A DNA stretch of 64,000 nt. Origin: a virus. Lineage: Duplodnaviria; Caudoviricetes. Position 1 is the stretch's first letter; each line of letters begins with the position of its first letter. The notes below the pieces were generated by a model. That model saw only the letters and a program-made list of their open reading frames with translations. It ran no database searches and had not been told where the DNA came from. This document shows, in pieces, positions 1-14,507 of this stretch. The position numbers were made by a program, and so were the translations under genes. The stretch covers positions 36,575 to 100,574 of IMG/VR virus record IMGVR_UViG_3300026522_000002, one strand, 5' to 3'.

Positions 1-109
1 TTGCTTTTTTACAATTTATACATGCAAATAGTGCACTATGTGTTTTTTTACATCGATATACATGTTTGCCAACTGTACATAATTGTCCAGGTTTTAGCTG
101 TTTTGCCAT
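1..109 (-). CDS. Small Cys-rich protein, KPGQL family (partial, runs off window start)
   Basis: ATG at 109 on minus strand gives MAKQLKPGQLCTVGKHVYRCKKTHSALFACINCKKA..., a paralog of 3172..3375 and 7956..8243. Not in the ORF track. Confidence 0.75.
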   Translation of the reverse strand, partial: MAKQLKPGQLCTVGKHVYRCKKTHSALFACINCKKA

Positions 110-122
110 ACACAATTGATTT

Positions 123-182
123 GCGGAGATCGAGGATTCGAACCTCTACACTCCTTGTTAATAATAACGTTAATAATCTCCG
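123..182 (-). ncRNA. Minimal tRNA-like element (acceptor stem and T arm only)
   Basis: CGGAGAT...GAGG TTCGAAT CCTC G ATCTCCG: perfect 7-bp acceptor stem and T loop, but only about 29 nt where the D and anticodon arms should be. Confidence 0.65.
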
Positions 183-317
183 TCCTCACTTTCGTAGTTA
201 GCACGTGACCACATCAGGCTGCCAGCTTGGTGTAGTCAGCAATATAAGAATTGCCAGTTATATAGTAATATCCCTTAATGTATTTCCTTCCACATACGAT
301 CAAAACCTGTCAGGCCC
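183..317 (-). ncRNA. ssrA: tmRNA coding piece (two-piece, permuted tmRNA)
   Basis: Starts GGGCCTGACAGGTTTTGAT at 317. Resume context ATAACT-GGC. Tag ORF 255->214 is GNSYIADYTKLAA-TGA. The 3' boundary is approximate. Confidence 0.9.
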
Positions 318-398
318 GATTGTAACCTTTTTCGCTCATGTCGCCGCCAAACTTAGCATTTACCGAATATCGCTATGGTTACATAAAAAGTCGCGTCG

Positions 399-465
399 GG
401 TGGACCTGGGGGTAGTCGAAACCCCGTCTCGCATGCGTATCTCATACAGGATAAAACTTCGATAG
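399..465 (-). ncRNA. ssrA: tmRNA acceptor piece (two-piece, permuted tmRNA)
   Basis: ...CGCATGCGAGACGGGGTTTCGACTACCCCCAGGTCCA. CAGGTCC pairs with GGGCCTG (317-311) including G3.U70, and CGCATGCG pairs with CGTATGTG (P2). The 5' boundary is approximate. Confidence 0.9.
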
Positions 466-499
466 AAACATAATTGATCAGATTATGCTCTAAACAGCT

Positions 500-590
500 C
501 ATAAATGGCTCTCTAAGCCACGATCTCCTTTAGGGTAGTTAGCTACTCCATCCTATTGGAAAAAGTGTCTCAGAGAGCGGTTTTGAAAAG
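500..590. repeat. Bipartite inverted element (copy of a dispersed family)
   Basis: CTCTCT 509-514 and AGAGAG 572-577 with extended imperfect arms and a 57-bp spacer. Same geometry at about 11260, 42740, 44077 and 57469. Confidence 0.5.
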
Positions 591-689
591 CTATTATTCT
601 TGTTGATACAGAGGCCACAGGCAGACTTAAAGTTCGGCAATGGTATGCATCCGCATTTTTTGATAAGAATATGAGTACTTCGTACGCAA

Positions 690-945
690 GGCTAACTTGA
701 TGACTAATACTGGCTCCAGGCTCACATATTCTGGTTAATTGATCAAAATGGACCTATAGTTTTACATCCGTAGGTTCAGATGCTATATACCCCTATTACT
801 GGCTTAAAGCTCTCAATAGATGTCGTTATTTCGACTATAGTTTCCGCTCATACATCTTACACGTCCGACTCAAACGGCCCCCGATGTAACTATTGCAGTA
901 AGGATTACTGGTTCAAGACTCTCAATCCTCGGTATAGTTTCCTTA
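690..945 (-). ncRNA. Putative structured RNA with three related units
   Basis: Three copies of AAACTATA...stem-G(A/T)GAG-N7-CCAGT-stem, with compensatory stems GGATT/AATCC, CTATT/AATAG and AATA/TATT. Confidence 0.6.
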
Positions 946-952
946 CGCTAAA

Positions 953-1570
953 TCAATAGCGCCAAGAATAATCATAGTAGTCCCCGAACTCGGCATCGAG
1001 GTTCTTGCGGTCTGTAGCGTACACTTTGTCGGCTTCAGACATCTTCTTCTTTGTCTCTTCGCCGATCTTCTTCTTCAACTCGTCATATGCGACATAGTTG
1101 ATGATTGGAGGAACGGTTTCACCGTCCTTGAAGGTCTTCTTCTTACCGTCCATCAGTACGATTTCAACGGTCTTCTTGTCGAAGTCGATCGTCTCTTTCT
1201 CGAAGAGAGTGTCCTTCAGTTTGCTTGCATGACGGAACTTGACGTCATTACAGTCAAACACAAAGCCCATCAGATAACGAGCTAAGCGGTCGCGCTGTGT
1301 CAATTCGTCATGCTGAATGTCGTGTACATCTCGCTCGTGGCGGAGCTTGATCAGGCCGGAGATAACTTGATAACGCGCTTCCTGATAACGACGTTTCATT
1401 TCACGCTGGGTATTCTCGTTTTTCTCCTTGTTGATTTCTGCGAGTACGGCTTCACTCATTTCTTGTGAGCCGATAGTACCTTTACCGAGTTTCTCGCGAA
1501 TGTTGTCTACAGTGATCTCCGTAGTTACTGATGTCTCAGCACCTTTTTTGTTTTTGTCTTCCTTTGCCAT
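953..1570 (-). CDS. Hypothetical protein (charged, coiled-coil)
   Basis: 205-aa ORF with an A-rich leader and no internal TAG. Confidence 0.85.
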   Translation of the reverse strand: MAKEDKNKKGAETSVTTEITVDNIREKLGKGTIGSQEMSEAVLAEINKEKNENTQREMKRRYQEARYQVISGLIKLRHERDVHDIQHDELTQRDRLARYLMGFVFDCNDVKFRHASKLKDTLFEKETIDFDKKTVEIVLMDGKKKTFKDGETVPPIINYVAYDELKKKIGEETKKKMSEADKVYATDRKNLDAEFGDYYDYSWRY

Positions 1571-1615
1571 TTTTGATAATTGGTTTTAAAGGATTAATAT
1601 TATGGTTAATTAACT

Positions 1616-1858
1616 CTATACGACTATTACGTTTTTCAATGACCATTCTTTTGGGAATTTCCATTGATTTACGCATAGCCATATTATCGCTTTACGTGCT
1701 GTTTGTGCAGCTTCTTTTGAGGGATAATACTTTGTGGTTATCAATTCTCCTCGATTTCCATTCTTATCTCTCTTATAAAGCTTTACTGGAAACATGTCGT
1801 CATACATAGTCTTCGTAACATTTGTGTTTATACTTGTCCTTTTTGTAAGGGCGTGCAT
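1616..1858 (-). CDS. Hypothetical protein
   Basis: 80-aa ORF in the operon; ends TAG with TAA two codons later. Confidence 0.6.
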   Translation of the reverse strand: MHALTKRTSINTNVTKTMYDDMFPVKLYKRDKNGNRGELITTKYYPSKEAAQTARKAIIWLCVNQWKFPKEWSLKNVIVV

Positions 1859-1914
1859 TTTTGTGTTGAGGCTTAGAATAGCTTTGTGCCTCGAATTTCT
1901 TTGTTTTACACATA

Positions 1915-2358
1915 TTACACAAGATTATTTTCGTACAACGACTTTAACATCACGTATACTGTTCGCTTTAGGCCAAACTTACCACCAAACAGGTGTTCTT
2001 GGTCAGGATATGTACAAATCAATGTGACTGCGTTTGCCCACCATTGTGGATCATCGCCGTCCATTCCTCGTAGTTTTCGAAGAATGTTTACAATGAATGC
2101 ACGTTCTTCCCCACACTGTTTGTATACTTCCATGATTGGCGCAATAGCCTTTCTCAGAGCATTGTCGATAGTTGACACCTCTGGATGTAACAGTAGCGCA
2201 ACATCGTCCGCATGTGGTGTTTCAGACCAACTCCATTGGTGAACAACAATGTTGTCGTTCGAGATTGCTTCGCTGGTAGCTATTTCGGTTACGATGCGAG
2301 CCAACAAGTCATGAGAAATTTCATCATGACCTGGGAGGATGAATGTCACCTGTCTCAT
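1915..2358 (-). CDS. Hypothetical protein
   Basis: 147-aa ORF with ATGA overlap with the upstream gene. Confidence 0.8.
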   Translation of the reverse strand: MRQVTFILPGHDEISHDLLARIVTEIATSEAISNDNIVVHQWSWSETPHADDVALLLHPEVSTIDNALRKAIAPIMEVYKQCGEERAFIVNILRKLRGMDGDDPQWWANAVTLICTYPDQEHLFGGKFGLKRTVYVMLKSLYENNLV

Positions 2359-2807
2359 AGCGCTTCAAATGGTATTATTTTGGCTGAATCGGTGGAATCG
2401 GGGACACTTTGTTGCATAGACGGCAAAGGCGTCTCAGGGAGAGCACTATAGATGCGTTTATTTGCACGATATTCGTATACAATGTCGGAAATGCCGTATG
2501 TCTTTTGTTGCTTCCCGAGCACCGTACAGATATTTGCAATAGTTTGGTCTGGTAGTGTCAATAGAATAGAATCGAATTCCAACTGCCTTCGTCGCTCTTG
2601 CTGGTATGCAATAACGTCTGTTGGACTGTCGAACTCGTACATCTTTTGTAACGCAATAGGCAGATATTCGTCTACCTGTTGTTTAAAAACACTGTCTGGC
2701 GGAGCGATCTCCTCTTTGATTCTTTCACAGGACGTTGTTGTAGCTATTCCTGCAATAAGAAGTCCACCAATTAAGGCGAACATCAAATACTTAATAAACT
2801 TTTTCAT
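2355..2807 (-). CDS. Putative lipoprotein
   Basis: MKK, hydrophobic stretch, then TTSC lipobox-like motif. Confidence 0.75.
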   Translation of the reverse strand: MKKFIKYLMFALIGGLLIAGIATTTSCERIKEEIAPPDSVFKQQVDEYLPIALQKMYEFDSPTDVIAYQQERRRQLEFDSILLTLPDQTIANICTVLGKQQKTYGISDIVYEYRANKRIYSALPETPLPSMQQSVPDSTDSAKIIPFEAL

Positions 2808-2878
2808 TGATTGATAGTTTTTAAGTTGATAATAATGTTAATTAACTCATGTCTGTCTTTCCAGACTGTCAAACGCTT

Positions 2879-2921
2879 GTCCCTAATGTGAGAATCGAAC
2901 TCACTTTAACCATTAAAGGGT
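2879..2921 (-). ncRNA. tRNA remnant / minihelix (T arm plus partial acceptor)
   Basis: CCCTTTAAT...GTGAG TTCGATT CTCAC ATTAGGG, intergenic. Confidence 0.45.
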
Positions 2922-2932
2922 GCGAGAGTGAG

Positions 2933-3175
2933 CTATTGCTCACCCTCGTTTTGTAAGATTTTACATAGTTCCTCATATTGTTGTGGCGAGAGGAACCATG
3001 CTCGTAAGTCTTCGGGTACCATACTATGTTGTACTCCGATAAACACTCGATGTTGACACCATCCGCATACCCAAGAACCATTGATATAATTATCGTCTGG
3101 TCCCATTACGGTCATTTTATTGTCGAAGGTAATTCGAACAAATTCGACAAAACTGATATTATGAATTGTTTTCAT
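2933..3175 (-). CDS. Hypothetical protein (CxxC)
   Basis: 80-aa ORF coupled to the upstream gene. Confidence 0.75.
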   Translation of the reverse strand: MKTIHNISFVEFVRITFDNKMTVMGPDDNYINGSWVCGWCQHRVFIGVQHSMVPEDLRAWFLSPQQYEELCKILQNEGEQ

Positions 3176-3375: not shown

Positions 3376-3599
3376 GCTCTTGTTTGAAGAAATCTTCCTT
3401 CGATTTTACTGTTGTGTCTTTTGATGTAGCTCTCAATATACATCGCAAGAGAATCTGCAGCCAATGCTGTCATGCCTTTACACAATAGCATTGTATTCTC
3501 CCCAGATTTGAAGAACAGACGTACTTTTTGTTGGCAATCATACTTCAATCTTGGTTTACGATGCAGTTGATTCTGGTAGAAAGATACTGGCTTACTCAT
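3372..3599 (-). CDS. Hypothetical protein
   Basis: Likely start MSKPV at 3599, coupled to both neighbours. Confidence 0.7.
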   Translation of the reverse strand: MSKPVSFYQNQLHRKPRLKYDCQQKVRLFFKSGENTMLLCKGMTALAADSLAMYIESYIKRHNSKIEGRFLQTRA

Positions 3600-4209
3600 A
3601 GTCTTGCAGTTCATCAAATGCTTCGATTGCACGTTCTTTTGTTACTTCCAATTCATTTTCCAAAGATACTACTTTACATACCGTGTATATAAAGGTGCGG
3701 AGCAGTTTCTCAAATTTATCAAGATCCTTCTTCCTTGTACCAGTTGGGAAGGTTTTGGTGATTACAAGCATTGTAACCTTGTTACCTTCATGCATAACAA
3801 GTGCCTCAGTTACATTGAACTTTGCATCGTGTAGACCTGCAAGTACTCTTGTAGCTTGTCCGTGGTTGAAAAGTATTTTGCACTGCCATCCAATTGACTC
3901 TTCATCAATGCTATGAATGCTGACACCTAGCTCGTCATCTGTTATTTCTTGCAGCTTTCGCCTTTTTTCTGGTCCACAGACGTCGACAATGGTATAACTT
4001 ACATCATATGGCCTTGCTATTGCTTTGATCTGTTCTTCTGTTTTTTCTGAATCAATGACTACAGAGCGTTTTACGTGGGAGCCATTATTCTCCTTTGGAG
4101 GATTTTGTTCATCTATCAGATCTACTGTCTCTTTTAAGCAGAGGTTGGTCATTTCCTTTACAACTTTTGCTAAATGTAGTTTGTTGGAGGATTGTAATTT
4201 AACTTTCAT
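3592..4209 (-). CDS. Protein with N-terminal ribosomal L7/L12 C-terminal-domain-like region
   Basis: NKLHLAKVVKEMTNLCLKETVDLID resembles the bL12 pattern [24 protein letters not shown]. Confidence 0.6.
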   Translation of the reverse strand: MKVKLQSSNKLHLAKVVKEMTNLCLKETVDLIDEQNPPKENNGSHVKRSVVIDSEKTEEQIKAIARPYDVSYTIVDVCGPEKRRKLQEITDDELGVSIHSIDEESIGWQCKILFNHGQATRVLAGLHDAKFNVTEALVMHEGNKVTMLVITKTFPTGTRKKDLDKFEKLLRTFIYTVCKVVSLENELEVTKERAIEAFDELQDYE

Positions 4210-4270
4210 TTGTTTGTAATTTTGATAATTATCTACTTGCACAGGACTTTGCCACCTATGCTTGGTTTGC

Positions 4271-5996: not shown

Positions 5997-6000
5997 TTTG

Positions 6001-6073
6001 TTGCCCGTATGGGAGTTGAACCCATGTTTCCCAGATCAGATACTGGGCGCTCTCCCCGTTGAGCCATCGGGCA
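6001..6073 (-). tRNA. tRNA-Gln(CTG)-like with 8-nt anticodon loop
   Basis: TGCCCGA TG GCTC..GAGC G CCCAG TATCTGAT CTGGG AAAC ATGGG TTCAACT CCCAT ACGGGCA A. Confidence 0.7.
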
Positions 6074-14432: not shown

Positions 14433-14507
14433 TGCTCCATGGTGTAGCGGTAGCACGGGAGGCTCTAACCCTCCAGGTCCGGGTTCGACTCGATGGTGGG
14501 GCGACCA
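14433..14507 (+). tRNA. Amber suppressor tRNA (anticodon CTA), Gln-type body
   Basis: TGCTCCA TG GTGT AGCGGTA GCAC G GGAGG CT-CTA-AC CCTCC AGGT CCGGG TTCGACT CGATGG TGGGGCG A CCA. Confidence 0.92.

Follow-up and report, generated by a model that had tools for sequence, protein, structure and literature searches.

Gene order and setting of the gap

The window, that is the whole 64,000-nt stretch analysed here, corresponds to G000:36575–100574, G000 being a 100,574-bp IMG/VR virus record with direct terminal repeats. Its major head protein shares 88% identity with the counterpart in the crAss-like phages cr272_1, cr124_1 and cr7_1, which their records place in Crassvirales, Suoliviridae, Oafivirinae. 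On the minus strand the gene order runs from a 205-aa ORF (953–1570) through a non-coding gap, a circularly permuted tmRNA and two small ORFs to an ECF-type sigma factor. The tmRNA and a tRNA-like minihelix beyond it are treated as the setting of the RNA that fills the gap and are not counted as part of it. The 205-aa neighbour consists of a coiled coil and a small β domain. It has 21 homologues with 62–96% identity, and the family reaches other genera weakly. This protein matched neither a PHROG or Pfam family nor an Atlas or PDB fold, no family matched the proteins near the gap, and PADLOC gave no match for six neighbouring proteins.

The intervening segment of the permuted tmRNA, from the CCA end of the acceptor piece to the coding piece (window 318–400, minus strand), is nearly absent in some close relatives and reaches about 250 nt in others, and the T arm and acceptor stem covary strongly among relatives. 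The tRNA-like minihelix beyond the coding piece (Table 1) shows no encoded CCA and no G3:U70, and its acceptor stem is compensatory in the relative L035. Elements homologous to it follow the tmRNA in cr131_1 and cr124_1, and cr272_1 has tRNA genes downstream. The minihelix may be a 3′ processing signal.

Some further features lie within the window. A 216-aa protein encoded 2.6 kb upstream of the RNA (3592–4242, minus strand) weakly resembles the C-terminal domain of ribosomal L7/L12 (E = 7.7e-4, short of the Pfam cut-off), and the same weak match is recorded for its homologues in relatives. ARAGORN reports an odd tRNA with a four-letter anticodon (tctg) at 6000–6073 on the minus strand and a suppressor tRNA with a CUA anticodon at 14433–14507 on the plus strand, and in a portal-like ORF only the second half of the PHROG profile is matched. 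Together these three observations suggest that TAG is read as a sense codon in part of the genome.

Fold of the RNA and its covariation

The first-pass annotation had described three related minus-strand units at 690–945, within a non-coding gap of about 470 nt. The extent of the gap and its non-coding nature stand, but the conserved structure spans all of 957–463. A single folded RNA of about 470 nt extends on the minus strand from the stop codon of the 205-aa ORF (953–955) to the first tmRNA helix (460). The three cores lie where they had been placed on this strand, at 904–926, 795–817 and 706–728, and every core is preceded by the octamer AAACTATA (933–940, 836–843 and 755–762), which has six copies in the 64-kb window, three of them here. 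Both CATC...GATG hairpins are present as well (852–887 and 764–783). All three units are real, and a fourth, degenerate unit (core 625–635) must be added to them.

The structure was derived from alignment A1 of 15 related sequences with RNAalifold and hand curation. The relatives are contigs of homologues of the 205-aa protein plus three metagenome contigs found by DNA pattern. The alignment represents some ten independent lineages; a further six genomes, at genus level, were examined alongside it by eye and by script. A1 contains 84 pairs in 16 helices, with 98.5% of the cells paired. Compensatory changes are found in 37 of the 84 pairs, against 2–5 when the partners are slid by 1–3 columns, and the observed covariation score is reached by none of 500 shuffles, which bears out the earlier claim of selection on RNA structure. 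The G–U wobbles are compatible with the minus strand only. Since the folding energy by itself does not stand out (z = −1.3), the argument depends on the comparison with relatives. Each related locus carries one to four canonical cores.

Table 1. Positions of the structural features in the window, in minus-strand order
Feature	Positions	Strand	Basis or remark
Hairpin 0, CGCUA-UUGAUU-UAGCG, with the UGA stop of the 205-aa ORF in the loop	946–961	−	Read from sequence
AAACUAUA copy 1; UAUACC (936–931) in long-range helix with GGUAUA (791–786)	933–940	−	RNAalifold
Unit 1: outer helix 930–923/907–900, internal loop AGA (922–920)/CAG (910–908), mini-hairpin 919–911	900–930	−	Covariation, model R1
Hairpin T1 (ACAUC...GAUGU), apical CCG-UUUGAGU-CGG, T-loop-like 7-nt loop	852–887	−	Covariation
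AAACUAUA copy 2 (843–836) and hairpin GUCG-AAAUAA-CGAC (835–822)	822–843	−	Alignment
Unit 2: outer helix 820–814/798–792, mini-hairpin 810–802	792–820	−	Covariation, model R1
H-type pseudoknot: stem 1 GCAUCUG/CGGAUGU (783–764); ACCUA (775–771) pairs with UAGGU (756–752)	752–783	−	Covariation of helix 8
Single-stranded palindrome UUGAUCAA	739–746	−	Sequence conservation
Unit 3: three-way junction, outer helix 731–725/673–667, mini-hairpin 721–713, inserted hairpin closed by AGU (711–709)/ACU (676–674)	667–731	−	Covariation
Unit 4: helices 651–646/610–605 and 643–640/618–615, mini-hairpin 633–625	605–651	−	Covariation
Long hairpin H5, apical 9-nt loop AGUAGCUAA (547–539) with palindrome UAGCUA	509–577	−	Helices 15–16
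Terminal hairpin GCAUAAU-CUGAUCA-AUUAUGU, directly 5′ of the first tmRNA helix	468–488	−	Stem covariation
Circularly permuted two-piece tmRNA, tag GNSYIADYTKLAA	214–460	−	Rfam RF04321, 51.4 bits; ARAGORN 123–491
tRNA-like minihelix: 7–8 bp acceptor stem, linker, canonical GGUUCGAAUCC T arm	124–182	−	Follows tmRNA coding piece

The units have a common anatomy. An outer helix of 5–8 bp leads to an internal loop, with AGA on the 5′ side, CAG on the 3′ side and an invariant G·U pair next to it, and then to a mini-hairpin. The mini-hairpin is formed by the pairs G5–C13, Y6–R12 and Y7–R10 with A11 bulged and a 2-nt loop, and all three pairs covary. The 17 nt that had been described as a loop of fixed nucleotides are really this internal loop together with the covarying mini-hairpin. 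Compensatory changes occur in 5 of 11 pairs in unit 1 (helices 1–2), 7 of 10 in unit 2 (helices 5–6), 6 of 13 in unit 3 (helices 9–11) and 7 of 13 in unit 4 (helices 12–14). The closing stem AATAT/ATT proposed for unit 3 gives way to an outer helix of GAAUAUG with CAUAUUC, which encloses the junction. The internal loop of unit 4 is degenerate in this genome and has the canonical form GAGAG..CCAG in the relatives L033 and L036. The units are 70–83% alike and are spaced by about 81–109 nt, not head-to-tail.

As had been foreseen, a covariance model built on the units (R1) can be used for search. In the genome it matches these three units alone (unit 1 with 49.8 bits, unit 2 with 52.9 bits), and elsewhere in the 100.6-kb genome the core has only one poor match at two or fewer mismatches. 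A chance repeat is ruled out by the confinement of the core to the gap and the specificity of R1. The statement that no family can be assigned holds for Rfam 15 with cmscan, and none of the known RNA families in it fits. In window positions 1–3000 (E up to 10), the tmRNA is the sole hit in or near the gap, while for six related loci (E up to 1) only the tmRNA, tRNAs and chance matches outside the gap are returned. The Rfam models for ROOL, GOLLD, self-cleaving ribozymes and ToxI give no match to the gap.

Several likenesses to known motifs were considered and set aside. The K-turn and sarcin-ricin (bulged-G) readings of the internal loop are both excluded by the register that the covarying T0–A18 pair fixes, as reasoned by hand. 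A likeness to hairpin and hammerhead ribozymes finds no Rfam support, and the likeness of GGCUUAGAGAGCC (521–505) to helix 43 of the 23S rRNA GTPase centre involves a loop that is not conserved. For mimicry of a host RNA, R1 gave one weak match in 151 Bacteroidota genomes among the part of the candidates that was scored.

The segments between the units are also structured. Hairpin 0 is found in L039 as UGGUA-UUAAUU-UACCA, with a compensatory stem and UAA in the loop. The long-range helix UAUACC/GGUAUA is invariant in A1; in the distant relative L047 it reads, by eye, UAUAUC with GAUGUA, with one compensatory change and one wobble. In hairpin T1, two of three pairs are compensatory (helix 3), and the outer stem varies among relatives while pairing is kept (by eye). 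The hairpin at 835–822 is invariant, and here covariation is mute either way. Two further helices were tried. Pairing of AACUAU in module 1 with AUAGUU is lost in relatives, and that of the second CUAUA with UAUAG (788–784) met mixed evidence (U–A and C–G pairs, A·A in L036, no fit in L047) and was left out.

The pseudoknot is kept with unusual freedom of sequence: 11 lineages carry 11 different complementary combinations of loop and 3′ strand. The third copy of AAACUAUA (762–755) provides its loop 3 and the start of stem 2. The UAGG of the 3′ strand (752–756) has another potential partner, the CUUA in the GGCUUAGAGAGCC hairpin loop (509–521); five cells fit, mostly with wobbles, and this may be an alternative fold or chance. 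After the pseudoknot GAUCAA is kept in the lineages examined (AAUCAA in Dulem). A possible partner of the palindrome UUGAUCAA is the CUGAUCA loop at 481–475, or another molecule. The stem of the terminal hairpin covaries between genera and in L036/L040, and its 20-mer occurs once in the genome.

The palindrome in the H5 loop is UAGCUA in most relatives, CAGCUG in L024 and L025, and UAAUUA in cr124_1. Every such change requires two symmetric substitutions. The format of the loop (two purines, palindrome, one purine) also resembles that of the HIV-1 dimerisation loop. A 6-nt palindrome kept through symmetric double changes suggests a dimer contact, and the H5 loop is probably a symmetric kissing contact that joins two RNA molecules. 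A self-complementary loop kept by symmetric covariation, as found here, is a feature looked for in homo-oligomeric ornate RNAs of the OLE, ROOL and GOLLD kind, and the same kind of evidence was used for the intermolecular kissing loops of OLE and GOLLD (Kretsch et al., 10.1101/2024.12.08.627333).

The covariation also bears on whether the locus acts as DNA, for example as origin iterons, operator palindromes or promoters. Direct repeats spaced 89 and 109 bp apart and two TGATCA palindromes would suit such a feature. However, the compensatory stem changes include G–U wobbles on one strand only, a pseudoknot is present, and the palindromes change sequence yet stay self-complementary, where protein-bound DNA sites would keep their sequence. 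We regard a DNA-level feature as highly improbable.

Relatives of the locus and the core at start codons

The same layout (CDS, gap of about 390–500 nt, tmRNA, two CDS, sigma gene) is shared by other crAss-like phages of Oafivirinae, RefSeq genomes included: cr272_1, cr273_1, cr131_1, cr124_1, a Bohxovirus and Dulem virus 42. These annotated phage records were reached by following the sigma-factor gene, and the tmRNA is the sole feature annotated in them at these loci. In each gap the core GA-[R Y Y, 2–3 nt, R, A, R Y]-C is carried by three or four hairpins, and the pseudoknot, then GAUCAA, and the terminal hairpin with a CUGAUCA-like loop are conserved across them. L047, a 99.9-kb IMG/VR genome, was found by a pattern from the sequence just upstream of the tmRNA. 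A blastn search of the gap against phage records gives no match, because the relatives are too diverged. Pattern scans for the unit or a pair of units in IMG/VR, JGI metagenomes and GTDB genomes gave three true relatives; all else was chance or unrelated tandem repeats. The contigs of relatives come from animal-gut and wastewater samples according to run or record labels, where runs with a small share of words were left out. We found no description of the RNA in the literature, and bulk catalogues of candidate phage RNAs (e.g. PMC10690425) might list parts of it. In the Bohxovirus record PV686213, a sub-threshold match to the type-P1 twister ribozyme lies near tRNA genes (L106:464–544, plus strand; 36.3 bits against a gathering score of 67.2, E = 2.3e-4).

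The core was also searched for outside the RNA, as GA-RYY-N2-3-R-A-RY-C with three pairs required; this definition was written by hand after the units had been seen. ORF starts were assigned mechanically, as the first ATG of ORFs of at least 80 or at least 100 aa with TAG read through. The genome has 18 core matches outside the RNA, and five of these are at the first ATG of an ORF. The expectation is 0.31 for ORFs of at least 100 aa and 0.50 for those of at least 80 aa (P = 1.7e-4). The five sites are all on the minus strand (G000 26312, 21314, 19482, 17889 and 16083) and belong to a DNA polymerase (phrog_1252), a primase (phrog_12622), a clamp-loader-like AAA ATPase (phrog_2376, PF00004) and two ORFs of no assigned function. 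At most sites the core ends 0–10 nt ahead of the AUG; at one, the AUG is in the loop of the mini-hairpin.

Pooled over seven genomes, each searched with its own motif type, 26 start-site matches are found versus 2.4 expected, while the other motif type, as a control, gives 1 versus 1.5 expected. The enrichment rests on a core motif that is short, degenerate and post hoc. The starts that bear the core across genomes are those of DNA polymerase, primase, AAA ATPase, a RecA-like gene and the sigma-factor gene. At orthologous polymerase and primase sites the hairpin is kept through compensatory changes.

The clearest correspondence between RNA and mRNAs is seen in cr124_1. All four of its units read GU-AUC-UUY-G-U-AU-C, and GU..U is likewise found at the starts of its RecA-like gene, its sigma-factor gene and one more, with no start carrying GA..A. 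The unpaired letters A4 and A11 have thus switched jointly in the RNA units and the mRNA start sites, which is what a common recognition partner predicts. This holds for the unpaired letters only: concerted evolution of the paired core letters had been considered as a specificity signal and is weakened by G153, in which the starts have GAACU..AAGUC and the units GAAUC..GAAUC. The suggestion in the first-pass annotation of a multivalent protein sponge therefore gains support that is specific and indirect, both from the start-codon enrichment on replication genes and from the joint change of GA..A to GU..U.

What the units and start sites have in common is the core of 12–13 nt, without the outer context. 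R1, built from whole units, gives low scores at the start sites (best E = 0.36). In isolation the start-site hairpins have no folding advantage over shuffled sequence (z from +0.5 to +2.2), so they would need a ligand to form.

Some other occurrences were recorded near this motif. Three genera have an identical core, GAACTATTAAGTC, within the 3′ end of their sigma-factor gene, about 55 nt before the start of the next gene and so farther from an AUG than the other sites (NC_055903 96768–96780, PV686213 82292–82304, PP511876 83903–83915). A perfect GTATCTTCGTATC core in cr124_1 (NC_055899 28325–28337, minus strand) is 107 nt upstream of the nearest annotated start (gp68) and may mark an unannotated ORF start or another RNA. 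Two motif-bearing ORFs (G000 21291 and 19469, minus strand) both begin with AUG UAU AGU ACA AAA ACA GCA. Their UAUAGU is complementary to ACUAUA of the thrice-repeated AAACUAUA, and a short antisense contact between AAACUAUA and these two ORF starts is conceivable.

An element so close to the AUG might also enhance translation starts on the ribosome, possibly a phage-modified one, with the RNA as a docking scaffold that brings the tmRNA; or the RNA might form an RNA-only assembly like ROOL and GOLLD. Bacteroidota are thought to start translation largely without Shine-Dalgarno pairing, and the distance of 0–10 nt to the AUG suits an enhancer. The RNA lies in a stable-RNA island with the tmRNA and, in relatives, tRNAs, its palindromic kissing loop is like those of OLE and GOLLD, and the weakly L7/L12-like protein encoded upstream would also be in keeping. 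However, structure that encloses an AUG usually hinders initiation, a feature of the host ribosome would not explain the change from GA to GU in one phage genus, and an assembly of the ROOL/GOLLD kind is disfavoured by the lack of an Rfam match. We see rather little chance for these readings.

Linkage to the tmRNA and alternative roles

The RNA adjoins the tmRNA directly upstream and on the same strand in all lineages examined, and the gap has no terminator-like site. TTTAGAGCATAATCTGATCAATTATGTTTCTA had been considered as the tmRNA promoter, with Bacteroidota −33/−7 boxes. It is really an RNA hairpin, with a stem that covaries between genera and in L036/L040, and with this reading dropped no conserved promoter is left between RNA and tmRNA. 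With neither a conserved promoter nor a terminator between them, the RNA and the tmRNA very probably share one primary transcript. The region is represented in contigs of four RNA runs. Since whole-phage contigs are present in those runs too, this coverage is no proof of a discrete transcript or of its ends. One contig of a size-fractionated RNA library spans exactly 565–937.

Such a linkage is expected if the RNA is a structural 5′ domain of the phage tmRNA, as part of the precursor or of the mature acceptor piece, at the permuted position of PK2–PK4. It would then serve folding, stability or ribosome docking, and the likeness to the start-codon hairpins would be secondary. This reading accounts for the constant place directly upstream of the tmRNA on the same strand and for a gap that has neither a terminator-like site nor a conserved promoter beside the tmRNA. 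The RNA is just 5′ of the P2 3′ strand and the T arm, where PK2–PK4 of a one-piece tmRNA would come to lie after permutation; this would fit a permutation with the break after the tag, and an H-type pseudoknot is present. The PK2–PK4 string of tmRNA is about 170–200 nt, whereas the RNA here has about 470 nt, consists mostly of hairpins with internal loops, unlike known tmRNA pseudoknot strings, and shows no detected pairing to the coding piece. A scan of the whole locus for covarying columns found no supported helix between the RNA and either tmRNA piece (14 sequences, with limited power), RNAduplex of the region against the 3′ part of the tmRNA was uninformative, and three Bacteroidota tmRNAs have no similar motif or sequence likeness. 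A dimerising loop would be odd in an RNA that enters the ribosome singly, and the start-codon motif and the joint switch in cr124_1 are left unexplained. As the whole explanation we consider a tmRNA domain unlikely. It is the main rival of the decoy reading set out below and is compatible with it; the two are not mutually exclusive.

The hairpin could also mark sites of cleavage or processing by an endoribonuclease comparable to T4 RegB, which would cut early mRNA starts and process the RNA ahead of the tmRNA. The same element is found at AUGs and, repeated, in the pre-tmRNA leader, every module opens with the shared AAACUAUA, and the library contig with ends at 565 and 937 is a weak hint in this direction. 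In spacers that are simply discarded, however, covariation would not preserve long-range helices, a pseudoknot and a palindromic loop, and no nuclease candidate was found nearby. We consider a processing signal quite unlikely.

The reading we prefer is that of a decoy. The units represent three of the four paralogous arms of a folded, non-coding minus-strand RNA about 470 nt long, which is probably read together with the ORF upstream and the permuted tmRNA downstream. Every arm presents a mini-hairpin of R-Y-Y, a 2–3 nt loop, R, a bulged A and R-Y, closed by an internal loop with AGA on its 5′ and CAG on its 3′ side. The same G-A-[mini-hairpin]-C element on or beside the AUG of replication genes, and of the sigma-factor gene in one genus, would be bound by a putative factor that controls translation of these mRNAs. 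The factor is most likely phage-encoded, since the letter switch is found in one phage genus, and repression is a likelier direction than activation because the AUG sits inside the structure. The RNA would be a four-site decoy or reservoir that titrates or stores the factor, similar to CsrB/RsmZ with CsrA and acting on a regulon like that of T4 RegA, and two RNA molecules joined by the palindromic kissing loop (probably) would offer eight sites. Starting from the observed fold, its conservation, the enrichment at start codons and the joint letter switch in one genus, we infer that a factor binds the element, that it is a protein, that it represses, and that the RNA titrates it. By position only, the upstream coiled-coil protein of 205 aa is a candidate. 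CsrA (PF02599) is absent from the phage genome, and RegA (PF01818) has no match in six frames (E up to 1).

A scaffold RNA that displays four decoy copies of a translational operator for a putative factor is a reading we hold with slightly better than even confidence. The wider proposal is more tentative, and we would put it somewhat below an even chance: Oafivirinae would time the translation of their replication module through the operator hairpin and the putative factor, buffered by a self-dimerising, four-armed decoy RNA fused to a two-piece tmRNA, and at least one change of the recognition code would have taken place, from GA..A to GU..U in Burzaovirus. The sponge model gives no account of the invariable fusion of the RNA to the tmRNA, which raises the question why it should be coupled to ribosome rescue.

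Crassvirales belong to the most abundant viruses of the gut, and to our knowledge almost nothing is known of their post-transcriptional gene regulation. If the decoy model is true, a conserved operator on the starts of polymerase, primase, ATPase, RecA-like and sigma genes would be the first translational regulon proposed for Crassvirales. The element is short, defined and present in RefSeq genomes, and so is directly testable.

Among known systems, type III antitoxin RNAs of the ToxI kind and the pseudo-ToxI mimics of phages are like the RNA described here in that repeated RNA units are found in a phage. The antitoxin mimic proposed earlier is not upheld, since the units are neither identical nor arranged as head-to-tail tandem repeats, no ToxN-like or defence protein is encoded nearby (PADLOC), and no antitoxin RNA in Rfam matches. 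With ROOL, GOLLD and OLE the RNA shares its large size, a pseudoknot, rich covariation and a place in a phage stable-RNA island, and ROOL and GOLLD are located near phage tRNA islands (10.1101/2024.12.08.627333). Its palindromic loop with symmetric double substitutions is like the kissing loops of OLE and GOLLD (10.1101/2024.12.08.627333). Unlike them, it matches no Rfam model, is built of four paralogous arms and belongs to Crassvirales of Bacteroidota, and its oligomer is predicted from sequence. It is an added candidate for the small set of large, possibly self-assembling phage RNAs.

The regulon of T4 RegA is similar in that a phage signal overlaps the AUG of many early or replication genes, here those of polymerase, primase, ATPase and a RecA-like protein. 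It differs in that the present operator is a defined hairpin, not a loose sequence, and that the genome has no RegA homologue (PF01818). We know of no decoy RNA in T4. The CsrB/RsmZ RNAs with CsrA/RsmA supply this part of the comparison. Their motif has GGA in a loop bound by CsrA/RsmA, whereas the one here is GA-[mini-hairpin with bulged A]-C, for which binding is predicted. The RNA here is encoded by a phage whose genome lacks CsrA, is fused to a tmRNA, has a far more elaborate fold and is probably a dimer. Like CsrB and RsmZ, it carries several copies of a short hairpin motif on one structured RNA (three to four units), and the same motif overlaps the start regions of target mRNAs (26 against 2.4 expected), which makes a titration circuit plausible. 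If so, phages would possess, in this multi-copy decoy RNA beside a tmRNA, an equivalent of bacterial sponge RNAs.
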